A stretch of 63,575 nt of DNA, the filler included, from an uncultured virus (IMG/VR IMGVR_UViG_2049941000_000092) (taxonomy: Duplodnaviria; Heunggongvirae; Uroviricota; Caudoviricetes). It is 5 parts of one record of this genome, joined end to end, with 100 filler letters (N's around TTAATTAATTAA, not from the genome) between each part and the next. Parts side by side here need not be neighbours in the genome. Positions count along the whole stretch, not along the records: positions 3,723 to 23,812 come from IMGVR_UViG_2049941000_000092; 4 more parts are not named here. The stretch is one strand, 5' to 3'. Position numbers and translations under genes: made by a program. The notes beneath the pieces were generated by a model. It ran no database searches and had not been told where the DNA came from. It saw only the letters and a program-made list of their open reading frames with translations. Shown piece after piece: positions 93 through 63,575 of the stretch (the stretch's first letter is position 1; each line of letters begins with the position of its first letter).

Positions 93-434
93 TTACCAGC
101 CCCAGTAGTCTGAGGGTTTTGTTTCTTCGACGATAGGAGTAGTTTCTTCGGGATGGCATAATTTGCAATCTGGCGAATGTTCAATGTTGATGATGTCATC
201 ATCATCATAAGACTTACCATTATTGCCTTCTTTAATGAACATCCACATGTCATGCCCTTCTTGTTGGAAATCAATCCTTCCAATCAGAAAGTCATGTCCG
301 GAACAATTTTCACTGTGGTGGTATTCAATAAGCGTCTTCTTGACGAGAACACCTTGTTCGGAATCCTTTTTGTCTGCGGAACAAAGTCCACAGACAAAAA
401 GAAATCCTAGCAGTAAAATCATAAACCGTTTCAT
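93..434 (-). CDS. hypothetical secreted/lipoprotein-like protein (113 aa)
   Basis: Signal-peptide-like N-terminus MKRFMILLLGFLFVCGLCSA; start overlaps the upstream gene's TAA. Confidence 0.75.
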   Translation of the reverse strand: MKRFMILLLGFLFVCGLCSADKKDSEQGVLVKKTLIEYHHSENCSGHDFLIGRIDFQQEGHDMWMFIKEGNNGKSYDDDDIINIEHSPDCKLCHPEETTPIVEETKPSDYWGW

Positions 435-1648
435 TACTTCTGATCAGCAATGCTTTCGGTAATGTCGAGAAGCATTTTCAGACCGACGGCGTCCATGGCA
501 GAGTTGTTACTACTACCACTGCCGCCCATCATCACCTTCGGCACCCAGCTCACACCGGATTTCGAAAGAGCTTCTGCGATTCCGACCTGTGTCTTGTATT
601 TCCACTCAGCGGCTTCCTGAGGAGTCAGGCCAGCTGCGACTTTAGCCCTATTTGCGGCTGCCTCAGCCTCACCTTCGGCAATGATACGTTTCTTGTCGAA
701 TTCGGCCTTCTCGGCAGCAAGCTTGGAAACTTCACGTTCCTGTTCTGCTTCAGTCACAGCTACGGCCTTGATTTTCTCCTGCTCCCACTTAGCTTTCTCA
801 GCGGCTGCTTTACCTTCCTCTGTAATCTGGACAGTACGTTGGATANNNNNNNNNNGGCGGTAATAACAGCCAGGTTAGCCGATTTTTGAGCGTCAATCTG
901 GTCTTGGGTAGCTTTATCGTACTTGATGTCGATAATGGAAACCAGTCCACTCGTAATACCATACATGGAGAATGGAGAAACTTCCTGACGTGCATATCCA
1001 CCGACCGAGTTGGGATCGGAAATAATCTCAGCGCGCACTCGTGTTTCTTTATCACCTGTAAGTTCATTGGTGACTTCCTCCTTGATGGAACGAGTTTTAT
1101 AAACACCGTTGTTAAGCTGGTCGGTAATATACGAAATCAAGTCAGTTCTAGTTTCAGAAACTGATTCAAGACTCGACATCAGAGGACCGCAGGCGGTAAC
1201 AACCTTGTAGAGAGTAGGACGGACTAGATTGTTGATGAGAGCTTCTTCACTACCGAAATCTCGCTGAATCTTTTGCANNNNNNNNNNGCGAATCATTCGG
1301 AAGCACCACTCGGAATGAACCAACAATCATGCCGCGGCCTTTGTCATTGAAGGTCAGTGCTGCTGCAGGATTTTTTCCTTCTGCAACATAACCGTTCTCA
1401 TCCTTCCGGAGTTCAGAGAACTCAACCTGAGAGGTCTTGTTATAGACAGAAACATTACCGAAGAGCTGCCACTGCAGACCACCGTCGGTCCACACATGAT
1501 AGGCGCCGGTAAGCGGCATCTGACAAACATAGTTTTTGGACTTGTTTGCATCTTCTGCAATCTTGGGGATAAACAGAAGAAGAAACACCGCGACAGCAGC
1601 AGTAACTATGATCCAGATACTGCTACGATTCACTTGAACCGGTTTCAT
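434..1648 (-). CDS. SPFH/band-7 (prohibitin/flotillin-like) membrane protein
   Basis: Three ORF pieces separated only by 10-N gaps: N-terminal TM, FNDKGRG..GSFRVVLP, LVRPTL..ACGPLMSS core, Ala/Glu/Lys coiled coil (AEAEQEREVSKLAAEKAE), VPKVMMGG tail. Confidence 0.8.
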
Positions 1649-6979: not shown

Positions 6980-7360
6980 TTACTTTGCGACCTTCTCGAC
7001 TTTGGCCTCTTGGGCCTCATCGTCGAAGATGTTGCTCTCACCAAGCTTGATATGGCAGAGCTTACGGCAGAACTTGCGCAGTTTCCGCTGCTCTTCCATT
7101 GGATCGAAGCCCATCTTGTGAGCTTCTTCCATCGGGTCACCAGGACGAGGATTGTCCTTGGCCCACTGAGACGGCTCCCAACAGCCAGTCTCTTCATTAA
7201 GCTCCTGGAGCGTGTGACATTCTGCCTCTTTGTCCCACGCGTCGATCTTCTCGACGAAACCGTCGAAACGATCAAGATTGTCAAGAACCTGACACAGAAT
7301 GATCTGGTCGTTGATGTTGAGTTTGGCAGACACGGCGAGGATACCCCAGCCTTCCTTTGC
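6980..7360 (-). CDS. hypothetical protein, 5' end in gap
   Basis: KEGWGILAVSAKL...KVEKVAK*. Confidence 0.7.
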   Translation of the reverse strand, partial: AKEGWGILAVSAKLNINDQIILCQVLDNLDRFDGFVEKIDAWDKEAECHTLQELNEETGCWEPSQWAKDNPRPGDPMEEAHKMGFDPMEEQRKLRKFCRKLCHIKLGESNIFDDEAQEAKVEKVAK

Positions 7361-7681
7361 NNNNNNNNNNNNNNNNNNNNNNNNNNNNNNNNNNNNNNNN
7401 NNNNNNNNNNNNNNNNNNNNNNNNNNNNNNNNNNNNNNNNNNNNNNNNNNNNNNNNNNNNNNNNNNNNNNNNNNNNNNNNNNNNNNNNNNNNNNNNNNNN
7501 NNNNNNNNNNNNNNNNNNNNNNNNNNNNNNNNNNNNNNNNNNNNNNNNNNNNNNNNNNNNNNNNNNNNNNNNNNNNNNNNNNNNNNNNNNNNNNNNNNNN
7601 NNNNNNNNNNNNNNNNNNNNNNNNNNNNNNNNNNNNNNNNNNNNNNNNNNNNNNNNNNNNNNNNNNNNNNNNNNNNNNNNN

Positions 7682-7983
7682 TGAACAAATCGCATCCACG
7701 TTTTGTCATCATGCTTGTACCGTTCCGTTGTACGTTCAACAACCTTTACAGTTGATCCAACGTCAAATTTGGACAGTTGTTTGGCAAGACTGTGTTGGGA
7801 AGAAATTGTGTATATAGAACCTTTCCACACAATCTTAACTTCTGAATCATCTCGATAACCAACGGTGAGTTGTTCACCTACAACAAGACGGAACCACCAC
7901 GGAGCCCCAAATTCAACAAGTTCTTGAAAACTGATCGTTTTTCTTAATCTCTGTTCGAGATTGATGTTGATGAATCTGCACAT
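7682..7983 (-). CDS. hypothetical protein; C-terminus lies in displaced segment 9538..9580
   Basis: MCRFININLEQ...KTWMRFV; 7682-7702 is repeated at 9560-9580, which continues HKFEIVK*. Confidence 0.65.
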
Positions 7984-7999
7984 GTTTGCTTCGCTTGCG

Positions 8000-8398
8000 T
8001 TAAACGATAGTATCGTCATAGACGTGTCGAAGTTCAACAAGAAACAGATGTTTCACGATGACTTCTCCGTGTAGAACTTTGACACAAATGCCACGATAGA
8101 TGCCAAGATGGCCCTCGTCGGCATAACGCTGAATCGCCTCCTTAATAGGCAACTTGTAATAATCCTGGTTCTTTCTGAGCCACTCGATATCGGCGGGTGT
8201 GATTGCCTCGGGCTCTAAGAATACCAGTGAATCAGGCATGTCCTTCTTCTCATTGTGGTCGGGAAGAAACAGGACTTCGCCAAAACGGCACCGATCGACA
8301 TACATGTTGATGCCGTCCTGGACACTTGCGGTTATGCGATCAACAAGGCGTGAGTTGCCGTGTTTGTCGCAGAGTTGGAATACGCAGTACGTTCTCAT
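8000..8398 (-). CDS. hypothetical protein (132 aa)
   Basis: Operon packing, ATG to TAA. Confidence 0.75.
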   Translation of the reverse strand: MRTYCVFQLCDKHGNSRLVDRITASVQDGINMYVDRCRFGEVLFLPDHNEKKDMPDSLVFLEPEAITPADIEWLRKNQDYYKLPIKEAIQRYADEGHLGIYRGICVKVLHGEVIVKHLFLVELRHVYDDTIV

Positions 8399-9207: not shown

Positions 9208-9311
9208 ATCACAATTTTGAAAACTTAGACCCTACCCCGGTCATTGGTATATTTAATTTCATTTCCCCAATGATACTGGCAGGGGGTGCTGATTACTGAG
9301 TNNNNNNNNNN

Positions 9312-9366
9312 GCTTTCGCCTACTTGGGCATCGTTTCGCTAGAATTTCACTAGCTCATCAGCGGTC
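9312..9366 (-). ncRNA. hammerhead ribozyme-like core, 3' part lost in gap
   Basis: GACCG-CTGATGA-GCTAG(TGAAATT)CTAGC-GAAAC-GATGC: exact CUGAUGA / stem II / GAAA core. Confidence 0.6.
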
Positions 9367-9516
9367 TTTTACAAACTCACAATAAGCTATAAACATAATA
9401 CCAGTCCTTGTAAGGAGAGGATGTTTCTTAATAACTATTTTGTGTTTGACTCCGTTTATAAGAACGTGTTTTGTATCAACGAAGTCTATCTTATCTCCAA
9501 CTTTCAAATCTACCAT
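9358..9516 (-). CDS. small hypothetical protein (52 aa) ending in TGA
   Basis: MVDLKVGDKIDFVDTKHVLINGVKHKIVIKKHPLLTRTGIMFIAYCEFVKDR; the TGA lies inside the hammerhead core. Confidence 0.45.
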   Translation of the reverse strand: MVDLKVGDKIDFVDTKHVLINGVKHKIVIKKHPLLTRTGIMFIAYCEFVKDR

Positions 9517-26660: not shown

Positions 26661-27097
26661 CTCTTGAAGAAATGGTCGATTGCGATAGATGATCGTTCTT
26701 GAAACCAAAGTTACTTGCTACAAAGCAATTTTCCAGTAAAACATTAGATTATATTGTTGAAAACTATAATATTAATCGCGAAGCGTTTCTTCTAAAACAA
26801 AACGAAATAAAATTAGAATATAAAGAAAAACGAGATACGGCATGTGAAAGAGGTACAGCCATACATTTGGAAAAAGAATTGCAGATGTATGGCTCACATA
26901 CCTTCGATTTTGAACCATATGGTTTCAAAGGATTGAAGGGTTCGTTCACATGCATCCAGAATCACAACATTCTTGATTTAGATAAAGGTGTCTATCCTGA
27001 ATTTCTGATATCAGCTACATTCGAAGATTTAACTCTGGTAGGACAAGCGGACCTATTAATAGTAGATGGAAATGATGTTTATATTGGCGACTATAAA
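26661..27097 (+). CDS. PD-(D/E)XK exonuclease, central part (displaced), code 4
   Basis: ACERGTAIH..YPEFLI..GQADLLIVDGNDVYIGDYK. Confidence 0.8.
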
Positions 27098-27109
27098 TNN
27101 NNNNNNNNG

Positions 27110-44499: not shown

Positions 44500-45629
44500 A
44501 TGGCAGACGAAAAAACTTATGTATTTGATGGTGCTTCTCGTAACGATATCCCACTTGCTTACGCTCTCAATAATGGAGGCGGATGAGGTAACGGATTAGG
44601 TGGCTGAGGTGGCGGAATCGTAGGATTCCTGCTCGGTCTCGCTTTTGGCGGTTTTGGTGGTTGAGGTGGTTTCGGCGGCTTTGGTGGAAACGGCATTAAC
44701 GGTATGGTTAATTCNNNNNNNNNNNNNNNNNNNNNNNNNNNNNNNNNNNNNNNNNNNNNNNNNNNNNNNNNNNNNNNNNNNNNNNNNNNNNNNNNNNNNN
44801 NNNNNNNNNNNNNNNNNNNNNNNNNNNNNNNNNNNNNNNNCCTTCAAGCAATTAATGGAACCGATGCAGATGTTCGTCAGTTAGCTACCACTTTAGGAAT
44901 GAATTATGAAACTATAAGTCAGGGAATCTCTGATGCTAGATTAGCTCTTGCTAATGTTGGCTCTCAGGTTGGACTTTCTGGTTTACAGGTACAAAACGCA
45001 ATNNNNNNNNNNNNNNNNNNNNNNNNNNNNNNNNNNNNNNNNNNNNNNNNNNNNNNNNNNNNNNNNNNNNNNNNNNNNNNNNNNNNNNNNNNNNNNNNNA
45101 ATCTAGAAGTATTACAGAATCTACTAGTTCTGTTACTTTCAATTTCAATACTTCTCCAGCAGTTAACTCTAGATTTTCTGGTTTAATTGCTGTAAGAATT
45201 GATGAACAAGCAGCAACAAGTGGAGACGCACTTCCTGTTTATTTCAATGTTCCTAGTGTAGCTGGCACTAATATCGCCGTTACTACATTTGGAGGTACAC
45301 CTGTAAGTGGAGTTGAAATGACAGAAGGAATACATCTAGTATTCTATGATAGAGAAAATGGTATATTACAATTATTAATTTAGTTTAATTATGNNNNNNN
45401 NNNCTAATAATACAGCTCTTAAGACTCAGATTGATAATGCTAATCAAACAGCTGCTGTTGCCGCTATGCTCGCTCCAATTCAGAAAGAAGTTTCTGAAAT
45501 CAAAGCTGCACAACCTNNNNNNNNNNTACAGTACAGTATCCTCAATTAACCGCTATTCCGTCTTACTATTTATACGGTAATTCTAATTATTTCCCATATT
45601 ACGGAGGCACTGGCTCCATCTGAGCATAG
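44500..45629 (+). CDS. Gly-rich membrane/coiled-coil protein of a conserved Bacteroidota-phage cassette; gapped and mis-ordered; code 4
   Basis: MADEKTYVFD..GGG[W]GNGLGG[W]GGG..FGG[W]GGFGG; QAING; ends GSI[W]A*. 45100-45383 probably belongs to the next gene (ATG 45644). Confidence 0.7.
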
Positions 45630-45971
45630 GAGGGCTCCTAACTATGGCAACGAATTTCGTATATAACAGAGTAAATATTANNNNNNNNNNNNNNNNNNNN
45701 NNNNNNNNNNNNNNNNNNNNNNNNNNNNNNNNNNNNNNNNNNNNNNNNNNNNNNNNNNNNNNNNNNNNNNNNNNNNNNNNNNNNNNNNNNNNNNNNNNNN
45801 NNNNNNNNNNNNNNNNNNNNNNNNNNNNNNNNNNNNNNNNNNNNNNNNNNNNNNNNNNNNNNNNNNNNNNNNNNNNNNNNNNNNNNNNNNNNNNNNNNNN
45901 NNNNNNNNNNNNNNNNNNNNNNNNNNNNNNNNNNNNNNNNNNNNNNNNNNNNNNNNNNNNNNNNNNNNNNN

Positions 45972-47420: not shown

Positions 47421-50400
47421 ATGTCAAAAAATGTAATTCTTAAAAAGAAAGGTGAAGCGATATTTCCTATAACCAAGTATGAAAATATATTAAATCCTCC
47501 GGATATAAAAGTGGAAGAGGTGCATGTTGGAGACACCGCTCCAGAACACGCGTCCATGTGGATTGATACTTCGGATAATGTAGGAGATTTGCCTGTTGAC
47601 CAATCTACAATTATTAGATCTATTCAGACAGCTGTATATACATTACAGCAGAAAGTATCGAAACTGATGTTACTAAGAACCAACGGTGTTGTTTCCGGTA
47701 ACCTTACAGACGGTACTCTGACAGAACTAGGCAACAGTACCGAAGCGGTAATTCCATCTATTATTGAAGATGATTATGAAGAATCCGGAGATGTTGAATT
47801 TCCAGAATACGCTTCGGAAAGTGAGCCTACGGTTAATCATGTGTCTATTAAAATGGGCACATATCAAGAGATACAAAGTAGTAAAAGATTTTTTATTAAC
47901 GGAGAATTAGTATGGTGTACAGATCGTTTATGTATGTACATTTATAATAATGGTAATTTCTACATAGTGGCATCTTCGAATTCTCCCACACCAACTGATG
48001 ACGAAATGGATACTGCAGAACTTCAAAATTATTTAAACAATCTTTCTTCGATTAGTTTTGTACCACTAAACGACGAAAATTCCACATATACTGTTCGTGT
48101 TAATGAATACGGAAATCTAATCGTTTACGATTCAAATAACGATGTTGTACAGGCCGAGCCAACAAGTAACACCATTTACTTCAATAATAGTGGAATGGGA
48201 AGCCTGATTATCAACTCGTTCTATTTAGGTGGGCTGGATACAGACGAACACTCATATCAGCCGTGTTCTCATAACTATGTGGAAATCGCAAATATATCTT
48301 ACGACGATATTAATCTAAACGGTTTACAGTTAATGTATACCTATGATAACAGTAGGTGGTTTAAACTTCCGTTATGGGGTGTTTGCAAAGCTCAATCTAC
48401 ATTCCTAATTCGTGGTGCCCAATGTTCCGTAATGGATGTTAATACGACTCTAATAAAGGTTAAGACATTCGATATGGAATGGCGTGCTGACGGAGAATTA
48501 ATCAAATTTGATAGAAATAATCAATGTGCCACATTCTATCTGTGCTGATATGATATTGAATCTGGCAAAATTTATGTAAGAGATACGTCCGGTGGAACAT
48601 CCAATCCTATGAAGGATTATCCGGAATCTGCACTGGACTTAATTAATACTGATGAAAACGCGCCTTCTGTTGCTCGCGGTTACGTTGATTTAGCAGGCGT
48701 TGGTAATGGAGCGAGCATAGCTGAAAAGAATAAGTATGTTCCTACCAGCGGCATTACTCCGTATACCCTATTCAAGAGAAACTATACTCTTGATCCGGTA
48801 TCTCAATCTAACGCTAAATCAATTGATAAACGAAACAACAAGAAATTTTGGAAAGATATCGATATGTCTAAGGAGGTATTCGACAATATCGTCGACTTTA
48901 CTCCAAAGGCTAGTTTTGAAAATAAGAACGCTTCTTTCGATAAGCATAACTTCTTAGAGGATCGCCCGAATACACTAACTTGTTCCTTTGGTATCCAGGC
49001 TACTGATAATACTGGTTCGGGTGGCAATGGTGCTACACGATGCTTTAACTGGAACTCGGTTGGATACTATGACGAATTCCTGTGGTATAAGAAATCTACA
49101 GACGCCGATTGGTCATGCGTCGAATCTTATAAGGAAGGTGTCGATTATACTGCTGCAACCGGCCTGAATCGCCCTACTGATCCTGAATGTATCAAACTCG
49201 GCCTATCCGAATATTACACTCGTATTAGATGGGAGACTTATTATGGTGCTGCTATAACAACTCACAAAGTGATGATTGCTGGTTTGACTGCTGGTACATA
49301 TAGTTTCAAGGTTGGCAGAAAGAACGCTTCTGGAGAAGTTAGCGATTATGTGAGTAAGACCAGAACGTTTGTTGTTCGTGCTGATAATGATGTGCAATCG
49401 TTTGACTTCATTCAGACGACTGATCAACAAGGTGCAAACTGGGAAGAATATCAAGTATGGGATCTGTCGGCAGATTATATCAATAGAAACGAGCGTGTTG
49501 GACAGACACCTGTGGTCGCACAAGGCGATCCCACCCCTTCTGCAAACGAACACGATTTTGACTTTACTATCAATACTGGCGACATCACCTATAACGGTTC
49601 CCGTCCGAATGAATGGATTGACTACTATAGAGGATATTCTTATCTTGATGATAAAGAGGAAATGCTGACGCTTGGCAATAATGACCTTGCTCCAGTTCCG
49701 GAAAATCCTAATGACGTATCTAATCCTGAATTACTTGGAATGACGTTACTAGGAAATGGTTCCGAAACTCCTTATAAAGTAAATCATGTTGTTGCAGATC
49801 TGTTCTATACTCAGGAAATGGATTACAATAATCCTCCTATTTTCGAAGGCACATCTGTTGTCAGTGGTGCTACAAAGACGTATAAGGTTCCTTCGCTGTA
49901 TTCATTCAACTACGGCCCTTATCACTTCATAAGCCTCAACTCTGAGATTAGAACTATGCCGGACGACCCTTCGAAGATTACTACGCTACGTGGTGAATTT
50001 GGTGTAGAAGATCAGGCCAACGGCGCAAGACGTTCCGTTATTTATGATCAAATTGAGGATTGGATGGTTAGAGATCTTCTTATCTGGAAACAAGGTTCTG
50101 TTCCCGCAGAATATGACAGATATACTCCTCAGAATTGCCAGAAAGCAATCGTATACTGCCATGAAATGCCATTCACTATTACTGCTGAAGCTACATATGA
50201 AGAATATGTCGATCCTACTAAGGAAGGTACTATCTGGCGTGAAAAAGCAAAGGCCAACCTCAACCTAAGACATAATTTCGAATTCCAGAGACTATTTAAG
50301 ATTTGGAATATCCGTCTTGTTTTCGGTGGACATAAGCACACGTGCTCAATTTCCTATCCAATTTACGACGCTCCTACGGCATATGTTCCTTATTCTGATA

Positions 50401-50987
50401 CTCCTCAGGATTTAATGGGAGATCTGTCAAACAAGGATACGTTTAATCCTATTATCCAGGTGCTTAGAACGTCCAACGAAACTACTCACGGACTAAACGA
50501 TAAACTTTCTTATCTGCTTACTAACTTTAGCGATAAGCGCGGTAATATCTTCAATTCGACAAATACAGCCGTTACTATCGGAAGTACAACGTTTGACGCA
50601 CAATCAACAAACACTTCCGCTAATGGACGACCTCTGGTTCGTGCGGAAATTGTTGATGCTGTTACAGCTCCTACGTATGTAATGTGTCAGGCAACAGGAT
50701 TTAAGAATCTGTCTAACTCCGATACTTCTGCAGATACAGATTACTGCCAGTGACTACGTAATCTTGTTCCGCTGGGTGGTTCTGCACAGTGGTATCCATT
50801 CTATACTCGCTTTAGAATAACGCCTACTCGCATCTATGTAAATATGGAACGCGTTGGCGGACTTTATACGCCGAGTTCCAAAGCAGACTTCTGAAATATT
50901 AGTAGAGATATGCCAAATGGTCATGATGCAAAGATGAGTAATGTATATCGTTATCATTGGGCAAGTTGTGAAATTCCATTAGATTAA
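47421..50987 (+). CDS. 1188-aa protein with purple-acid-phosphatase-like metallophosphoesterase, code 4
   Basis: Gap-free with 3 TGA; THKVMIAGLTAGTYSFKVG (FN3-like), TDQQG, NTGDIT, GNNDL, HEMPF, GGHKHT. Confidence 0.85.
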
Positions 50988-50991
50988 TTAT

Positions 50992-53900
50992 ATGGCCATA
51001 ATTAAAAAGAAAAATCCAGAGACTGGGCAATGAGTCCCTTGGGCTGCTAGTTCAGCCTCTGGAATTTATTCTATAAATCCTTTACTTTTAGAGAATTCGG
51101 AACAATATGTAACTGTGGATCAAGCACTTGTTCGTAACAAAGAAGATATCGAACTGCTTAAGAAAAATGTTGCATGACTAGCATTGCACGGAGGTGGTGG
51201 CTCCGGTGGCGGCGGTGGAAGTTCCGAAGTAGAAAATTCAATCGAATTTATAAACAACGGTGATGTTGTAACATCTATATTATGGACAGAGAATTCCAAA
51301 TCAGTAGATTACAGNNNNNNNNNNNNNNNNNNNNNNNNNNNNNNNNNNNNNNNNNNNNNNNNACTATCATCGAAAACATCTACCAGATTTACCGTTACCG
51401 TCTTGCTTGACGGTACGCAGATTTGGTCTGGTACTGGTCTACAGCCTTCTGCGACTAATGTAAGAAGTGTTCAGATTCGTAACATTAACGCCTATTCTTC
51501 AAATGCGATTCACCGGCTCAGAATAATTGCCACCGATGCATTTGGAAACGAAATCTATGCAGACTGCACAATCGCAGAATTATCTGTAAAGATTCTTGTT
51601 CCAAACTCCATCAATGTTAATCGAACGGACTTTGAAACTTCTGGATTGAATGTATCTTATAGTGCTAGCGAAATTGGCATATATAATTTATATTATAGCC
51701 GTGATAAAGACCTGTATAAGAATTTATCCTTAGCGGAAGGTGTTGTGGAATTAAATATTCCGACAACAAGTATGTTGGATTATACGATTCCTTATACAGA
51801 ACTATTACATAACGTACAAACTATTGCCACAGGACAGACGTTCGATCTGTATTTCATACTTGTTAATGCTTCGGATAGTGTGCTACACTCTGAACAGGTA
51901 AACTCTACAATATTAATTGTGAGTCCTGATAATATCGCGGTTGCTAAGGTTAGCCTTTCTACAGACATATCCAATCCAGCCGTAGTCTCGAGGAGTAGTG
52001 TGTTATATGCTAACTTTATCGCATATCTCGCAGGAGGTAGTGCTTTCTATAGATATAACATCGGTGCTCAGGAAATCGAACTTAGTGGAGAGGAATGAAT
52101 TAATGTCGGAGAACCTTATACGATAATTACGGACGGACGTGGTGAATATGGACGAACAACGGTTGTTCAGTATAATGAGTTTCCGAGTGTTTCTTGATTT
52201 AGAAGAAATGCGTATTATAGAATTACAACTTCTGTAACAGACGTCNNNNNNNNNNAAACAGGCTCTCTTGATACTTATATCTTTGTGTCCTCCGGTGCCG
52301 GAGAAACACTTCCTGTCGATGCAGATTATAACAATATCTTCGATTTCTATGTGTTTGGCTCTAACGCTACAATAAACTCTTGGGTATCTACGAACGATTC
52401 GTTCCTATATAACAATGCCGTTCGTACAGTAACTACCGAACTGGAAATGTTCAACATGGGTGGTAAATCTGTCATTACGTCTTCGCACTGTAGATTTTCC
52501 AATAAGGCTCACGGTATCATTCAACCTTCCGTGTTAAATGGTGTATCGCAGAAATGGTTCCCCGAATCAACATCTAATGGTTTGATTTCGGCACAAAGAC
52601 CACAGTTTACGCTGTCCATTTCGTACTATAATGACTTTACACCGGATGATAATCGTACAATACTTAAATTAGGTAACTATGTTCCTGAGAGTTATGAAAA
52701 TGGCGGTGTAGCAACTGGTACTGGTATTCTTATCAATAATCATGATTACTATATACAGTTGGGTGGCTCTTCATCTCGAATCACTGGTAAATTACAAGAT
52801 TCTATATTCCAGCAAATCGATATTGTATTTGGCGAGGTCATTAAGACTACAAATAATGGAACTTCTGTGTTCGTCAAAGTCTATCAGAACGGCGTACTGC
52901 TTCAGACAGTAGAAACTCAGGACNNNNNNNNNNTTTCAGGAATTTTAATCAGATTTTCCTTGGTTGTGATGAAAATCAAGAGAATTACACAAACTTTAAT
53001 CTACAGTCCATAGCGTTATGGAATACTTGTCTGAACCCTTATCAGATTACCTGCAGATGGATTAATAACCTCGCAAGATATAATCTTACTGGCGAGAATA
53101 ACAACGAGCTTAATTACGATATCATCGAAGAGAAGATGCGTTCCAACCTTATTGTTTACGATTCTTCTACAGAAAAATTTAGTTGTGCACTATGAAATAA
53201 CGGTGGATTTAATGACAAACAGTGGATTAATATTTCCAATAATACAATCTCGCTGTCGTCTAACTTGGCTGATGCTGCAAAGATACCTGTCGTGGTTCTT
53301 GACTTCAGTACATCTACAAACTGGACATGAGATAACTTCACGCAGGTTATGTCCGCAAGTGGCAAGATCCCTCCTGCTGAAAATGTAGCAATCTACTATT
53401 TCGTTGATGGCGTAAACGTCCTTCCTGCTGGTACGACATGTACTGTTGAAATTCAGGGTACGACTACTACAGGATACACCATTAAGAACATTGATATTGA
53501 CTTTGGAGAAAACAGACTGTTCTGGGCTAAGAGTGATTGGTTCCCAGAGAGGGTATATACCTTAAAGGCTGATGTTGTTGACTCTGCACACGCTAATAAC
53601 GCTTGTATTGGTAGATTTATTAATAAGTGCGCAGAAGTCGGTATAGTCGATCCTACGCCCGCAATGGAATACTATGACGCTAATAAGTCTTCAAATAACT
53701 TTATAATTCCAAGCACTTGTAATGCGTCTATTAAGCATACATTGGAAGGATTCCCGGTATTGTTAATCTGCAAACGAAACAACAAGAAATTTTGGANNNN
53801 NNNNNNTTCTATTCTGCCGTAACAACCGATGTGCGTTCCCTTGGTATCTATTCATTCAACCTTGGACGTTCGGCATACTTCAACTTAGGTTTTAAGATTC

Positions 53901-54803
53901 TTAATAAGTTTAGAAACATAAGTGGCGACGTTCTTGGTGACAGTAGTTCTGCTCCAATGCTATTAGGTGCTCCTGTAGAATCCACGGATGTCATTGATAT
54001 GAACGCGGAGTCTTGGGAAGGTGCCGACTCTTTGAACTGCGACACCAAGCCTATTGATTACGAACCTACTTCCGAAATGGAACAAGAAATGCCGGTTAGA
54101 CCAACTGGATATTTCTGATCTAGTCTTGAAGGACATATCCGACACTTCTGGAATAATAAATATCCTGGTGGTGCACCAATTGCTGGTTTCCAGGAACTAT
54201 TCCGAGAACTTGTGTTACACCCGTACGCTAAGGGCAATCTAAACCTCAACATCGGTACCTCGTTCAAGGAATATGACTGGAGTGCCGCTCGCGGCTTCTT
54301 CATTCCAGATGGTGCCGAGCCTAAACAGATGGGCCGTGTTGGCGACGGTGGTGCGCAATCTATTAAGTTCAATATCAAGAACGCAAGATTCTATTATATT
54401 GTTTGCTTGCTCGCAGGACTTGTTGATAACCTCGGTAAGAACCTTAATATGCGAACATGGCGTAGAGGATTAGGAAGTTACGTATCTAAATGATTTACTT
54501 CCTTCTACGATATGGATACAGCGTTCGGTATCGATAACGCCGGTTATGAGACTGTCAAACCCGATGTATTTGACGAAACATTGTATAACATCGACGATGT
54601 TCTTGTGAACGGATTTGTAGCCGGAGATGAAACGTCTGATAATATATATACTGTTAAGGATGCTAAATTATGAGGTATCCTCGATTCTACAGAATTCAAA
54701 CGTCAGTATGATGACTTATCTGGTGACTCCTCCTATAATTCCTTATATGCCCAAATGTGGAACGAAATTCGTGAGAAATTAATTCCGAGCGTCGACTCGT
54801 TTA
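50992..54803 (+). CDS. giant virion-type protein, N-terminal half with CotH-kinase-like domain, gapped, code 4
   Basis: IQGTTT..IKNIDI, YTLKADVVDSAHANN, GIYSFNLGR, GLVDNLGKN, [W]FTSFYDMDTAFGIDNAG. Confidence 0.75.
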
Positions 54804-54843
54804 NNNNNNNNNNGTTTAACTCTACTAAAAGGACTAATGTTGT

Positions 54844-55980
54844 ATGAATATTTCTAACGAATTTACAGGGAGTTATGATTCCCTACTCGATGATCCGGTG
54901 GATAACACTGGACAAGAAACAGTAGACTTTAACGCGGCACCAATTGAGCCGCTTCTTCCAGATCAGCCTAGTGATAAAGAGCCTGAACAGGAAGAACCAA
55001 CTGAAAAAGTCGAAGAGACTCCAAGTGAGCCGACAGAACCAGTTAATGCGGAACCTACAAATCCGGAACCTTCTGTCATGGAAAGTTTATTAATGTCTCT
55101 TGGAATCAAAGATCCCACAAAGCTCCAGTTCGAGAATGAGGCTGGAGAGATAGAAGAGCAAGATTTTAACGCTTTGTCGAAAGAGGAACAGCTAAGTGTT
55201 ATTCAGGAACTAACTAATAATCAGTACACTGATTATGAGAAGCAGGTTATCGATATTCTTCGTAAGAATAATACTACGCTCGAAAATCTAATTGCTGCCT
55301 ATCAGCAAAAGGCAATTGAAGCATATCTTGCTGAAAATCCAGAAGCTGTACATCAGAAGTCATATAAAATTGACGATTATTCTGATGACGAATTATATAT
55401 GGCCGATTTATTCGCAAAATTCCCAGATTTTACTGAGGACGAAGTTCGCAGTAAACTTGAATCGGCAAAAACTAATGAGGAACTTTTCAAGAAAGAGGTA
55501 GATGCTCTCCGAGTATACTATAAAGGCGAAGAAGATCGTCAGGCAGAAGCTGCCCAACAGGCAGAACGAATGCAGTATGAAGCGCTTCAGAATTCACTTT
55601 TAGATGCAGTAAATAGGTTTTCTGAGGTTGTTTTAGATACAGACGATCCAGAGAGCGACGCTCTTGAAATTGAGGAGGGAGATAAGGCGGCAATTATGAA
55701 TTACCTTCTTGCTCCAGATAAGGACGGTAGGAGTCAATTTGATAAAGATTTGTCAGATCCTGCAGCTTTAATTGAGTTAGCTTGGCTTCGTACGAACGGA
55801 CGTAGTGTTATCACGGGTATTTCACAATACTGAAAGAAAGCACTTGCAGAAACTCGTAAAGAATTGGCTACGACAAAAAAAGCGTTGGAGAAGTACGCAA
55901 AAAAGAACGACACCGTTGTTGTTAATAAACCCAAATCAGATTTAAACCCTAATCCTAATATATTTGATATGTGGAAATAA
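54844..55980 (+). CDS. acidic scaffold-like protein (crAss capsid-module gene), probably displaced, code 4
   Basis: Acidic Pro/Glu N-terminus, GIKDPTKLQFE, IDDYSDDELY, ISQY[W]KKAL. Confidence 0.7.
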
Positions 55981-56021
55981 TGATTTGGTAACATCTACTA
56001 ATTAATTTTATNNNNNNNNNN

Positions 56022-59000
56022 AAGGAGACGCCACTAAGCCATATTCGCTGAAATCAATTAATCTGAGTAACACTAAGTCACCTAATGTAACATCATTCCC
56101 GTTGAGTTTAACCGCCGTTTCGGATATGATTTATGCGAACCCGTTCGAAAACCTAACGGATATCGATATTACTAACTCTTGTGTTACGAGCGTCAGTCTT
56201 CCGGACGGAGTTTCTCTGTTTACACTGAATGTTGCAGGATCTGCGGTCCGTAACGTAGAACTTAGAGGACAGTCTATTATTGATAATGTTGACTTTACAG
56301 GATGTAGTGCTTTGAACACGTTGGTGCTTAATCAGTGCTCTGTATATCGTAAACTGTCATTAATGAATATGGCATCACTGCAAAATGTCACCGTCAGTGA
56401 ATGTCCTGCGTTAACGGAAATTGAAATCGACTGTAATAAATCTAAGAATAATTTAATTCTGAACGTTTCCGATACTCCGAATCTGACATCCGTGAAGATT
56501 AACGGTTGTTATGGTACGAGCGCACAGATTTCGCTGGCTGGTGCTACACAACTGGAAGAACTTGATTTAAGTGATTGCTACTTCGGTACGGTATATCTTC
56601 CTATTGAGTGTAGAGACACACTGAGAGTGCTTAATTTAAGTGCCTCCAGAATAAAATCTATCACATGGATCACTCCTTCTGGAAGTATAATCACAGACAC
56701 TCTTAATTTAAAGGGTTGCACAGCTCTTGAAAGTTTGAGTTTAGGTTCCAACGTTAGTGTCGAATATGTGCAGTTTGATAATATTGAGGACGAACCTATT
56801 ATTATAAATTCTTCCTTCAGTGGATGTACATCATTAAAACGTGTTTATGGTAATGTTCGAATCAATTGCTCTTCTGCATTTAGCGGATGTTCGCAGTTCT
56901 CGATATTGGGCAGTCCATTGAGCGAAGCTACATTTAATGGAGAGTCTGCAATGGATGGAGACTATATTAAGCACTTTACGGACGATGTTAGTTCCAACGA
57001 AGCAATTCATTTCGAAGCTTACGTGCCCGGTGACGAAGTAACGAACATGACGTTCCAGAATACAACTGCCACAAGTTCCTTTGAGTCTACAAGTTGCACG
57101 AACTTCGACGTTTACTACATTCTCTGNNNNNNNNNNTGGTTTGGCTGATATGTTCAGACATTGTAAGAACGTTGAGTTTACTTGTACCGAAACGGTAGAT
57201 AATTCGCCACATTGAACGATGTTTAACAAGTGCGGAAGAGTTACTACGGTTAATTCCATGTTCTATTCTACTGGAAGCAATAACTTCAGAATATTTACCA
57301 TGTGCTCGTCACACCAAGGACTATTTAGTCCGCTGGCAAGCTGTAAGAATTATGGTACAATATTCTATAGTTCAAGATATATTAGTGATAGACGTGCGTT
57401 TGAAGGACTGAATGGTAGTAATCTTCCAGCAACCACAATTGCATATTTCTCTCCGGTATTGATTGTAGCAAATGTCAACACTTTGGATACAGCAAGCACT
57501 TATGCAAGACTTACTACACCTTCGGATTATTTATTTGGTTCGGGTAATATATCAAATTTCTTCAGGTATATTCCTGGTCTAACTGGAACGATGGATTCTT
57601 TGTTTTATAATACTGCGATAATTGATTACGATACGTTCAGTAAGATTCCCGCGACTGTTACTACCGTGAGAGGTTGCTTTATCAGTACTAATGGAAAGGG
57701 AACCCTTAATGTTCAAAACTTGTTCGAGAATAAGTCTAAGGTTATAAATATATATCATAGCTTTAGAGTATCGAGTTCAAGCAATTCGACAGTAACCATG
57801 CCGATTGACGATCAAACATTCTTCGGATTCAGCAATCTAACAAGAGTTGGATATATTGCTTCTGGTTCCAATGTCGGTTCTGCTACGAATACGGCATTTA
57901 GCGGAAGTGGTATCGTAAAAGTCATCCAGGGTAATGCGTTCCCGTACGATATTATTCGTAATAGTGGTGCTGCAAGAAAACTTGTGATGTTTACGGGATT
58001 CTTTAAGAACGCTTCGTTCGAAAATCCAGTTGGAACGGTTGAGTTACCAGGAACATTGTTCACGGGCTGTTCGAGTCTTGAAAATGTAGAGCACTGTTTC
58101 TACAATTTCAACAATCCTTATCAGTTGACTTCCGACGGTTTTGTTGGAACGAAGCTGAAACAGGCGAGATACTGTTTTGCTTCGGATAACAGCCAACTTA
58201 TCGGCGAGATTCCCAGACGTCTGTTCAATCTTGGTTTTACTACATCTACTCGCACATTACGTGGTACAACCGAGACCTCAAGAACAAAGACGGTTACGTT
58301 TGATAGTCAGAGCGTTATAGGAAACTATCTCGTGCTTACTTCTGCTGCTGGTACGGAAGTTGTTGATGGAGAGACGGTAAATGTTCAATACCGCGATTCC
58401 TACACTTACTGTTCTTTGGAAGACGATGTACTTACATACACGCCGTTGTCCGAAATAACAAGAGAGGTGCAGTATTGGCAGAATAATGATTGGGTAACAG
58501 TTTCCAGTACAACAGAATATGTTGACGACACATGAACCGTCACATCTGTAAGCTACGACATTAGTCTGCCTAAGAACACGATTACCGACTTAACAGGATG
58601 CTTCGCCGGAGTTAACTGTGATCCATATGTATGTCTCGAACCTACTGTGGAAAACAATCCAACCTATTGTCCATATGAATACCTTGTCAGTGGCGGTGTA
58701 TGAACCAGAGCTAATAAGGATGAGAACGATAAGACCTATATGTGGGAATTCGATGGTTGTAATTACATCGATGAAACTGGAAATTCATACCTATCGCTCG
58801 ATGAGTTTACCGAAGAAGATGATGTATTTGCAAGTTGGCATCCTCTGTTTGACAGTAACGCAACACCTGTGCTTAACTTCTGCGCTCCTCCAGATCTACT
58901 TAGATGGTGCACTAGTAACGCATCGGTCGCATATATGTTCACGGGCGCTGGTCATGATACAAACGGTACGTTGAGTTACTCGTCACACTTATCCGGTCCT

Positions 59001-60240: not shown

Positions 60241-60348
60241 CAGCGANNNNNNNNNNNNNNNNNNNNNNNNNNNNNNNNNNNNNNNNNNNNTTAATTAATT
60301 AANNNNNNNNNNNNNNNNNNNNNNNNNNNNNNNNNNNNNNNNNNNNTT

Positions 60349-63300
60349 TTTGCAGCACAATTAAATGCACCAGAAGATTTTACATTATTAGATTTTTACG
60401 CGTATGGCCTTACTCCGAGTAACACCGGACTAAAGGATGCGAGTTATTACAAAGGAATTGATAAAGTAGTTGAACGATTTTCTGATGACGAAGGAAATTT
60501 TGATGAGAACGCATTTAATCAATTTTATGATAGTGCTAGAAGGGCATATAACGAATGAGCAAATACCGATTTTGCGGATACTATTGTAAAAAGTATTGCA
60601 AGAAGTCCAGAAGATATCTCCAGAATGGGTGATACAAACATCTGGGATACTAGTACAAAAGTATTCGAAGTAAACGATATGTGGCGACACCAGAGAGGCC
60701 TTGGTAATCTACGTGAAACCGGAAAGGAAAGTTATGATTATCGAGAGGTTGCTCAGGCTAATCGTGTTCACGACGCTGATGATAATGTCTTGGACTATAC
60801 ACCAAACGATAAGGGCGGTTTGTTCAAGGCATTATCAAGAAAGCCGATGTATATTGCTACTGACGAAAACGGTGTTCCGTTGCTAGACCCAGATACGGGA
60901 GATCCGTATTATAAGGAGCTTCGTGATGGAGAGAGTTCTTTTGGCAAAGAGATGCTCCATTACACAGACACCCTTACTGCTGAAGACACCTGGCTAAACA
61001 AATATGATTTCTTTGACAACGATAGTTTGGATAAGAGTGTTGCCGGTACAATTGCAAGAACAGTTACTATGGTCGCTCCATACTTGATTCCATATGTTGG
61101 TCCCGCTCTTGGTGCCATTGGTGCTGTATATGGACTTGCAAGATCACTACCAGTACTTGCTAAAGCTGTAAATGGTATTCTTACACACGATTCGGATAGT
61201 ACCGAATATGGTAAGAGACTTAATAACAGAATTGCGTTCTTCTCGCAATTTGACACGTCTAAGAGTAGACATTCGCTTGAAAATCAGTGGTCCTTTGAAA
61301 ATATCGGTGATATGATTGTTACTTCTGCGAAACAACTGTTTGAGCAGAGAACATTTACAAGAATTCCTGAAATCTTAAAACTTCCTTCAACGAAATTCAA
61401 TACAGGCTTGTTCGGATCCATGAGCCTTGGTTATATGGCATTAACGTCTGCAGAAAGCTCACTAGAAACCTTTAAGAAAGCCGGCATGTCTGATGTATCA
61501 GCAGGTGTTTCTATGCTTGCCTATACTGCTGCAATGTTCGGATTAATGCAGTCCAATTATTTTAAAGGCTGGTTATTCAGAAATACTTGGGTCAACGCAG
61601 CACCTGAAATAACAGACGCTCTTAAGAAACAGTCTGATATTGTAGCAGATGGAATTGCGCAGAGTGTTAAGGCTAGTAAGAAAGGACAGCATTTACTGAA
61701 ATTGGCTCCTACCGCAACGGAGAAAGAAGCTCAGAACCTATTTAAACGCGTATTCAATGCTACCAAACAGGCATGAACGGAAAAGAGTTTCGCTCCTATT
61801 AAGGCGTTAGATCTTGCAATACCCGGAAGCGTTGGCGCGATAAAGAATGTTGGTGGTGTATATGTACATCATGCATTAAACGAAGGTATTGAGGAAGTAA
61901 TGGAAGAGCAGGCTCTTGATGTCATCAAACTCGTTTCTCTCGGACTTGAACATCTTGGATATAAGATTTCTGACGATACTCATGATCAGCTTGAATTCGG
62001 ACTTACGTGGAACGACGCAATGCAACGATATGCAACGGCGTTTGTTGGTGGCGCTGTTGGTGGCGCTGTATTCCAAGGATTGGACGATTGGCATAGCAAA
62101 GTACTCAATAGTAATATTTCTAAATATACTGGCACAGGTGTCGATGGTGCACTTATCAGAGCAATTCAATTATATGGTGAAGATCGTACTATAGGTGAAT
62201 TAAATCGTCTATATAAGCGTGGTCTTGCTAATACAAATCTGTCCATGGATGGAAAATGAGTAAAAGATGCAACAGATCCATCCAAGGAAGTTTGGACGTG
62301 AGATGAGAAGGGAGACAAACCTAGCCAGAACGACGTTGTGTATAACGCCCTTAAGGTTAAGATCAAAGCTCTTGCGGAAATAATGAAAAAGAATCAGTTA
62401 CTTCTTACAGATGAAGAAGTTTTACGTAAGGTTCTTTCTCCCGAACAGTTTAAACAATTCGAAAATAGTGGCAATCCTATCATGGACCAACTCCGTAAGG
62501 AAGTTAAAGAGGGTGCCAAAAAAGAAGGAATTACTGAACAGGAATACCGTAAAAAGCATAAAATCAACAACTTTGAGGAATTTGCCAAACGCACTGGTTT
62601 TGCAAATATCATTCTTACCGATTTTGGTAATCTCGCACTCGATATCGTTGAGTTAGAACAAGAAATTGAAGGCCGCAAAGGATTCTTAACGGCTCAGTTC
62701 CCAGACACACGTTCTGCAGAACGAAACGAAGCCATTAACAAAGATCCGTTCATCAAAGACCTAGAGGAAAAAAAGAAACAGAAACAAGAACAGTTAGAAG
62801 CACTATTTAGTGGTAAAGCGGCATCTTATTACATAAGATATGCTCACTACGCTTCACATTCTGGTCTCGTTAGTTCGATGATTTCCGCTCAGGGCCCTAA
62901 CGTTCTCAGCAAAGATTCCTTTGCATTCTTAAGACATCGTACCACCTATAGTGATGCTGATGAAAACGAAAAGAAAATCATTGATAAAGAATACGAGAAC
63001 TATATTAAGTCCACAGGAATCGATGCTCTTCAACGCTCTAACGAACTATTCCAATATGCACAGGACTTGTTTACTCCTGTGTTACAACAGCAACTTGGCG
63101 ATATAACCGGTGTCAATCTTACATCTGATGTATATGGTCAAACGCTCGAACATCCTGAAAACGTAGATCCGTCTACTTTACTCGATCGTGCTACACGTAT
63201 CAACGTAAAGGCACTGGATGCCGAAAATCCGGATCTCGACGAACTATTCCAAAGTCTACACGGACAAATTGATATTATTATTAATTCTGGTATAGACGAG

Positions 63301-63575
63301 CTTGGCAACGCGTTAACGATCGGGCAACGTTATCATAAGTTACTCGACTTCGCAATAAATCAGTATAAGGCCATGAAAGAGCAGAACATCGTTGGTTTAG
63401 GTGCTGACGATTTTATCAAATATGCTTTTAAGGCCATCAGTCAAGATTTATCAAGACGCATTAATGCCGTTCCTGTTAATACGGAGGATTTTATCAAACA
63501 GACCCCTGTAATTCATGAATACGATTTGATGAAAAACGAATCGAATAATGAGGTGATTATCAAATTGTTTGAAAA
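60349..63575 (+). CDS. giant crAss virion cargo/ejection-type protein, partial at both ends, code 4
   Basis: Single open frame over 1070 codons with TGA at 60556, 61774, 62257 and 62299; EGIEEVMEE and FVGGAVGG motifs with hydrophobic helices. Confidence 0.75.

Follow-up and report, generated by a model that had tools for sequence, protein, structure and literature searches.

A predicted type I hammerhead ribozyme kept between early genes of a TGA-recoded phage from cattle-gut metagenomes

According to our analysis, the minus strand of positions 9312 to 9366 in the stretch of DNA examined here (63,575 nucleotides, filler included; hereafter the window), which derives from an uncultured member of the Caudoviricetes (IMGVR_UViG_2049941000_000092), carries a type I hammerhead of 79 nt, of which the 5' 54 nt are present. 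On the evidence of its sequence, the element is deemed a genuine hammerhead that has been kept at this position. It is probably a functional ribozyme which cleaves itself after a GUC triplet, splitting an early polycistronic mRNA. Sequence and fold features, membership in a class of phage hammerheads defined by covariation, and conservation of position are shown here; that the RNA cleaves, what cleavage does to the mRNA, and what a hairpin downstream of the cut does are inferred.

The window is a heavily gapped scaffold with 63 N runs, in which the minus strand from 9366 to 9312 corresponds to the 5' two thirds of the hammerhead and is followed by 10 N. The parts of the ribozyme listed below were read directly from the window, the gap being taken from its N runs.

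9366-9362, minus strand: 5' strand of stem I, GACCG
9361-9355, minus strand: core, CUGAUGA
9354-9350 and 9342-9338, minus strand: stem II, GCUAG and CUAGC, 5 bp
9349-9343, minus strand: loop II, UGAAAUU
9337-9334, minus strand: GAAA
9333-9322, minus strand: 5' side of stem III
9321-9312, minus strand: first part of the stem III cap
9302-9311, no strand: 10-N scaffold gap that removes the last 25 nt of the ribozyme

On the minus strand, the bases of 9333-9312 read C GAUG CCCAAGU AGGCGAAAGC. Every base of the minus-strand hammerhead core with a 5-bp stem II, as claimed in the initial annotation, is present at 9366-9312. The pattern of core plus stem II occurs once in the window, versus none in 100 dinucleotide-preserving shuffles, and once in all of G001, a virus record of 177,170 bp which has 98% of the window's sampled words in common.

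The 3' third of the ribozyme had no match anywhere in the window and is known only from G001 and from relatives of the element. The 269-nt segment 9312-9580 matches G001 at 100% and gave no match in a blastn search of phage GenBank. A megablast map places this segment at G001 111378-111110 and shows the window to run in the opposite orientation to G001 32.8-121 kb, several of its blocks being misplaced. Scaffold order is wrong relative to G001, for example, at 2063-2174, 2166-2897, 26661-27098, 45404-45680, and 54814-56011, and the last block of the window (60347-63575) jumps by about 21 kb, to G001 36001-32773. Window position 7682 maps to G001 111130, and since the segment 9312-9580 overlaps window 7682-7702 by 21 nt on this map, it belongs inside the 321-N gap at 7361-7681, which is filled by G001 111131-111464. 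The placement proposed by the initial annotation is borne out, the 21-nt overlap being real and the G001 map in agreement with it. The 25 nt lost in the 9302-9311 gap comprise the remainder of the stem III cap, ACUUGGG, UUUAA, GUC, and CGGUC, the continuation past the gap in G001 (locus L001) reading AGGCGAAAGCUGAGC ACUUGGG UUUAA GUC CGGUC. The full element spans L001 1716-1794 (G001 111325-111403). Its GUC triplet at L001 1787-1789 falls within the window's gap but is present in G001 and in four further contigs (L084 to L087) described below, and the cut is predicted after the C of GUC, at L001 1789 (G001 111398|111399). Closing the gap with the near-identical G001 supplied both the stem I partner and an NUH triplet. 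Of the continuation predicted earlier, ATCGT-H-CGGTC, the NUH triplet (GUC) and CGGUC were found exactly, and the simple closure of stem III by ATCGT was not.

We applied the invariant-core criteria given in the methods of PMC3088659 (C3 U4 G5 A6 N7 G8 A9 ... G12 A13 A14 A15.1). CUGAUGA and GAAA are found both in the window and in G001, and all invariant positions are present, namely C3-A9, G12-A14, A15.1-U16.1, C15.2-G16.2, G10.1-C11.1, and H17, which is C in GUC. The pairs adjoining the core are canonical (G-C at 10.1-11.1, C-G at 1.1-2.1, and A-U at 15.1-16.1), and U16.1 and H17 are provided by the GUC located 3' of stem III. Stem I is open, and stems II and III are closed by loops, so that the G001 sequence and its fold give type I topology and the earlier type I assignment holds. 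Stems I and II are perfect 5-bp helices, the former made of GACCG and CGGUC. At the base of stem III, A15.1-U16.1 and C15.2-G16.2 are followed by an internal loop of about 3 by 4 nt (GAU versus UUAA), beyond which a helix of 7 to 8 bp forms from a G.U pair plus CCCAAGU/ACUUGGG and is capped by 15 nt containing a small GGC-GAAA-GCU hairpin. A reading of the internal loop as a kink-turn was rejected by eye because of a misfit in register.

In the isolated 80-nt L001 RNA, the minimum free energy (MFE) fold is the three-way hammerhead junction, at -24.3 kcal/mol, and the junction is also the MFE fold of the isolated RNA in three of four relatives. When the full context is folded, a downstream hairpin competes with stem I and stem II is lost too. 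Fast hammerhead cleavage needs a contact of loop II with stem I or a tail; inspection by eye identified no tertiary partner for loop II. How often closure would arise by chance was estimated given the core, by requiring GUH after a partner of C15.2 and then five bases pairing with stem I in shuffles of the 130 nt downstream. Such a site was present in 511 of 200,000 shuffles when only Watson-Crick pairs, the kind observed in the L001 closure of stem I, were counted, and in 3,067 of 200,000 when G-U was allowed.

A search of viral contigs for the exact 29-nt core retrieved one unrelated contig (L011/L038), where stem II and loop II are identical, stem I is GCCUA/UAGGU, stem III is CCUAC-UUCG-GUAGG, and the triplet is GUA; this hammerhead also lies between co-directional ORFs. 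The pattern CTGATGAG-N4-TGAAATT-N4-CGAAA matched 74 sites in 72 viral-contig loci. With L001 added, an automatic descriptor which demands GUC or GUA, at least 4 bp in stem I, and at least 3 pairs in stem III, including A15.1-U16.1, closes 65 of 75 cores (33 unique sequences) as type I hammerheads. The L001 element is among the 10 that were left unclosed, in its case because of its weak stem III base. As for the other unclosed cores, visual inspection shows a stem I of 3 bp for L051 and for the four cores in L072 and L073 and no partner within 90 nt for L012, L040, and L071; L066 looks unrelated. We define the class by a 5-bp stem II with loop UGAAAUU, a 5-bp stem I, and GUC or GUA, with an A at the 5' position adjoining stem I and a place directly after an ORF stop as further features, and the L001 element has all of them.

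Covariation argues for pairing in this class. The four stem II positions left unconstrained by the pattern show complete pairing in 33 of 34 unique sequences, each position having 2 to 5 pair types. Over the 22 short-stem-III members, pairing reaches 98.9% of cells, compared with 68.6% in shuffles, and their covariation score was reached in 0 of 500 shuffles; slid registers gave 28 to 36% pairing. It is to be noted that stem I pairing was part of the filter by which the covariation set was selected and stem II pairing was not. Stem III spans 9 to 61 nt across the class, so that a long insert is normal for it. A model (R1) built only from the 22 short-stem-III members scores the element at 42 bits, yet closes it wrongly via an internal GUA/GGCG, so that R1 lends no independent support; the score comes from the core, with which the members had been searched for. 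A MAFFT alignment of all 33 class members was dropped as their 3' ends were misaligned.

Clusters of hammerhead cores occur in other phages. The G006 contig has six hammerhead cores in 6.7 kb (49367-56046, plus strand), with varied stem II and loop II, and one viral contig (L072/L073) has four in 3.6 kb; each of the clustered cores in G006, L072, and L073 precedes an RBS-ATG. The commonest subgroup of the class comprises about 25 viral contigs with a common 40-nt upstream flank. In L014, the sole member of this subgroup that was scanned, the hammerhead (385-433, minus strand) lies 58 nt downstream of a match to the two-piece or alpha-type tmRNA (RF01849, 58.9 bits; 492-662, minus strand), which is cut by the contig end.

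Conservation at this very position was assessed by scanning metagenomes for a pattern that specified the arms of stem III but not its cap. This returned the four contigs L084 to L087; the stem III pattern had no matches in the viral contigs. Because the pattern fixed the stem III arms, identity of the arms in these contigs is by construction, and the contrast with the flanks is not. All four carry the 5' half of the ribozyme, which lay outside the pattern's requirement. The hammerhead block is 94 to 100% identical over 81 to 119 nt in L084, L086, and L087 and 85% identical over 119 nt in L085. The changes are few: G-U replaces G-C at the outer stem I pair of L084 and L087, loop II is UGAGAUU in L086, stem II of L085 is rebuilt (GC-A-UGC ... 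GCA-GC) and still able to pair, and L085 and L087 have one change each in the cap. The neighbouring genes are instead 72 to 78% identical, or unalignable or replaced. L084 and L086 are syntenic with G001, with an upstream 132-aa gene at 72 to 75%, and a downstream block of L084 aligns at 73%; L085 and L087 have a downstream block in common, at 75 to 78%. The ORFs directly upstream differ from contig to contig (100, 129, 157, and 170 codons). Contigs from four DNA sequencing runs, of cattle-gut and other animal-gut origin, were also compared and are consistent with these observations; among the runs listed as containing the stretch, none is recorded as RNA. A 152-nt contig of X10 matches L001 1713-1793 with three differences, with flanks unmatched on both sides, and an X6 contig joins L001 1548 to 1743 through 45 other letters in place of 194. 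Contigs of all four runs match L001 only from 1804 on.

The ribozyme sits in a 120-nt spacer that separates a 52-aa ORF from a co-directional 130-aa gene, among small, tightly packed genes on the plus strand of G001. The features of this neighbourhood in the window are as follows.

9358-9516, minus strand: 52-aa ORF, whose stop is the first UGA of CUGAUGA, with the second UGA in frame
7682-8040, minus strand: upstream 126-aa early gene without a family match, its last 22 nt in the gap
7361-7681, no strand: 321-N gap, the true place of segment 9312-9580 and of the ribozyme 3' end according to the megablast map
6980-7360, minus strand: downstream 130-aa gene, its first 4 codons in the gap and its start 54 nt past the predicted cut

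The 52-aa ORF ends in GAC CGC TGA TGA, so the claim that the UGA of CUGAUGA is its stop proved correct, both core UGAs being in frame. Neither Pfam nor PHROGs gave a match for this ORF or for any of ten neighbouring early proteins, and a protein search of the viral contigs with the 130-aa gene found no relatives. The 52-aa ORF is absent or replaced in the relatives, and the X6 join of 45 letters in place of 194 means that most or all of it is missing there. No promoter- or terminator-like sites were found beside the ribozyme, the region being no richer in them than its own shuffles. We surveyed 38 unique class members for an upstream frame of at least 50 codons with its stop at -8 to +12 relative to the first core base. 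A clear upstream ORF was found in 22 of them, with stops at -8 (9 members), at -7 (7 members), at the core UGA (4 members), and at +12 (2 members); the 16 that stop 7 to 8 nt before the core do so with TAA, TAG, or TGA. In 28 of the 38 members a downstream ATG ORF of at least 40 codons begins no more than 200 nt from the cut, and in 22 of these 28 it lies 7 to 60 nt away, although the first ATG found may not be the real start.

Perreault et al. (2011) report that hammerheads flanking prophage genes cut polycistronic RNAs in vitro and that bacterial type I hammerheads are about as frequent as types II and III (PMC3088659). The phage and prophage hammerheads described there have a canonical core, three stems, and a position between co-directional genes as seen here, and clusters occur in some phages, as in G006 and one viral contig in our data. 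Since its layout is that of these prophage hammerheads, the present element is read most likely as an intercistronic processing site; the processing of polycistronic phage RNA described in that work is the role we propose. As compared with the hammerheads of PMC3088659, the element differs by its 38-nt imperfect stem III insert with an internal loop 2 bp from the core, by its class-typical UGAAAUU loop II, and by its location in a TGA-recoded phage with the stop of the upstream ORF inside the core.

In the mechanism we propose, the 177-kb TGA-recoded phage, known from cattle-gut metagenomes, would transcribe the element as part of a polycistronic mRNA from its early arm, where the standard code is used. 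The RNA would cut itself after GUC when stems I and II and the long stem III have formed. The hammerhead reaction leaves a 2',3'-cyclic phosphate on the upstream product and a 5'-OH on the downstream one. The upstream fragment would end at the 52-aa ORF, and the downstream fragment, with its 5'-OH, would start 54 nt before the 130-aa gene that it carries, so that the two halves of the operon may become independent of each other in stability and translation. In addition, the first 14 nt of the 3' product may refold as a 5'-terminal hairpin, CGGUC-AUAU-GAUCG. This putative hairpin, located at L001 1790-1803, would consist of the 3' strand of stem I and a downstream copy of the 5' strand, and it can also form in L085 to L087 (with GACCG in L086). 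Class-wide, a 5'-terminal hairpin occurs in 20 of 37 members versus 13.2 expected from shuffles, which is a weak hint of such a hairpin on the 3' product across the class.

The Rfam hammerhead models, run on the window, on L001, on a 126-nt region, and on all of G001, gave nothing at the gathering score, so the model check suggested in the initial annotation returned no support. The best scores on the element were 16.8 bits versus a threshold of 48.5 for Hammerhead_3 and 12.6 versus 56.3 for RAGATH-1-hammerhead, and RF00163 (Hammerhead_1) had no match at E≤10 on G001. By gathering threshold the element is not a member of RF00163, RF00008, or RF03152, this threshold being an operational cut-off of the model and no defining feature of the ribozyme class. 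The core consensus of RF00163, RF00008, RF03152, and clan CL00010 is the same as that of the element, and RF00163 also has the open-stem-I topology in common with it. Since 0 of 20 other class members (from L013 to L078) were matched by Rfam 15 at E≤0.01, the UGAAAUU type I class appears to be missing from, or poorly covered by, the Rfam seeds.

With regard to the genetic code of the phage, treating TGA as sense lengthens the longest open frames in G001 from 1,202 to 3,473 aa and raises ORF coverage from 0.77 to 0.93. In-frame TGA codons number as many as 18 per frame in the minus-strand genes of G001 at 11-108.6 kb and are almost absent from the plus-strand arm at 108.9-142 kb; the ribozyme lies about 2.7 kb into this standard-code arm. 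In the window, the late genes on the plus strand at about 9891-63575 (G001 minus strand, 32.8-108.6 kb) need TGA as a residue, with open frames of 2,646, 2,118, 1,622, 1,258, and 1,200 codons containing 3 to 14 in-frame TGA. BACON domains are present in a 348-aa late product (Pfam E 1.6e-19), a hint that the host belongs to the Bacteroidota. G001 has 17 tRNA matches, among them tRNA(UCA), plus a tmRNA. The 72-nt tRNA with anticodon UCA (L009 5708-5779, corresponding to G001 145708-145779, outside the window) belongs to a cluster of 16 tRNAs at 120.9-145.8 kb. It is called SeC by ARAGORN but has ordinary tRNA length, and it is likely the UGA suppressor of the recoded phage. The full-length tmRNA (L008 299-691, corresponding to G001 120299-120691) lies just outside the first base of the window and is identified by Rfam RF00023 (67.1 bits, E 6.6e-24) and by an ARAGORN call with a tag peptide. 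That TGA is read as Trp rests on tRNA(UCA), on the late-gene codon usage (TGG 0.96%, TGG+TGA 1.55%), and on published precedent; when a recoded late protein of 758 aa was searched against PDB sequences, to see whether Trp stands at the TGA positions, no match was found.

The theta (HDV-like) ribozymes of Kienbeck et al. (2024; PMC10879173) are likewise small self-cleaving RNAs in gut phages with recoded stop codons, and they are of another ribozyme class; they abut tRNAs, including suppressor tRNAs. The present element, unlike them, lies about 34 kb from tRNA(UCA), between protein-coding genes. A term search found hammerheads unmentioned in PMC10879173 and in the recoding preprint 10.1101/2021.08.26.457843, and the combination may be in print elsewhere.

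Against the reading as a functional ribozyme, the element could be a hammerhead-like relic or a slow or conditional variant, whose G.A/A.A loop cripples stem III, so that it would cut little or need a bound factor to do so, and whose extension is a putative binding site. We consider this unlikely, although it accounts for several peculiarities: the element is alone among 34 unique members in having non-pairs at both 15.3/16.3 (G.A) and 15.4/16.4 (A.A), the descriptor that closed 65 of 75 cores failed on it, and its cap holds the GGC-GAAA-GCU hairpin. No other member of the class has so weak a stem III base, which could make cleavage slow or dependent on conditions, and slow phage variants, perhaps regulated, are discussed by Perreault et al. 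(2011; PMC3088659). However, the core nucleotides and the three core-adjacent pairs are all intact, the 8-bp helix clamps stem III past the internal loop, and three relatives keep the element at 94 to 100% where its neighbours stand at 72 to 78%, while a dead relic is expected to decay. The near-identical hammerhead with replaced genes on both sides in L084 to L087, and the unmatched flanks in the X10 and X6 contigs, would also be explained if the conserved 80 nt were a homology patch or the boundary of a mobile cassette for early-gene exchange, with catalysis secondary. Purifying selection on a ribozyme predicts the same contrast, though, and the compensatory changes across the class preserve the fold rather than the sequence, as does the stem II of L085, altered with its pairing kept; this explanation is therefore deemed extremely unlikely. 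Very many stretches of DNA were scanned, so that some chance cores are to be expected, yet a chance match to the hammerhead consensus is practically out of the question: one core stands against 0 in 100 shuffles, closure has p of about 0.003, and the covarying class with 33 further unique members and the positional conservation in relatives refute it in practice.

A different proposal ties cleavage to the genetic code. The initial annotation suggested that ribosomes would run through the core under code 4, coupling RNA cleavage to the code switch; the ribozyme would then act as a sensor, cutting while the early UGA-UGA stop is obeyed and being melted later by tRNA(UCA) read-through. Recoding itself stands, in that the late genes are TGA-recoded and tRNA(UCA) is encoded at G001 145708-145779, with the ribozyme's own arm nearly free of TGA. 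With TGA as a residue, the 52-aa frame, which stops at the core UGA-UGA, extends by 21 codons as far as a UAA located 3 nt ahead of the cut, and the upstream ORF ends at the core UGA in three of five subfamily members; term searches also found the word hammerhead absent from 10.1101/2021.08.26.457843 and PMC10879173. The coupling to cleavage, instead, does not hold up in comparison. In two of the four close relatives, L084 and L086, an in-frame TAA precedes the UGA by two codons and keeps ribosomes from entering the core whichever code is in use, and the X6 contig lacks most or all of the 52-aa ORF. In the class, 16 of 22 clear ORFs stop before the core and 4 at the core UGA, and CUGAUGA is necessarily a tandem stop in one of three frames. 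Moreover, none of nine other phage records of the class (55-124 kb, size-selected from about 20 contigs over 30 kb) looks recoded, their frames being no longer under code 4 or code 15. Code-switch coupling in this phage is thus unsupported, and we regard the sensor as very unlikely; that a buildup of tRNA(UCA) would drive 21 codons of translation through the core, unfolding the ribozyme and altering the processing of the early operon, appears highly improbable. Were it true, a self-cleaving RNA would report the state of the genetic code.

The reading we prefer, a functional hammerhead that processes an early transcript, gives a large TGA-recoded phage of the rumen a well-supported hammerhead and also brings to light a widespread phage type I class, with a 5-bp stem II, a UGAAAUU loop, and often a long stem III, which lies below every Rfam threshold and is therefore missed by annotation pipelines. 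The strong conservation of the element amid fast-changing early genes, together with the tight abutment of these hammerheads to the stop of the upstream ORF, offers a concrete and testable handle on the function of hammerheads in phages.
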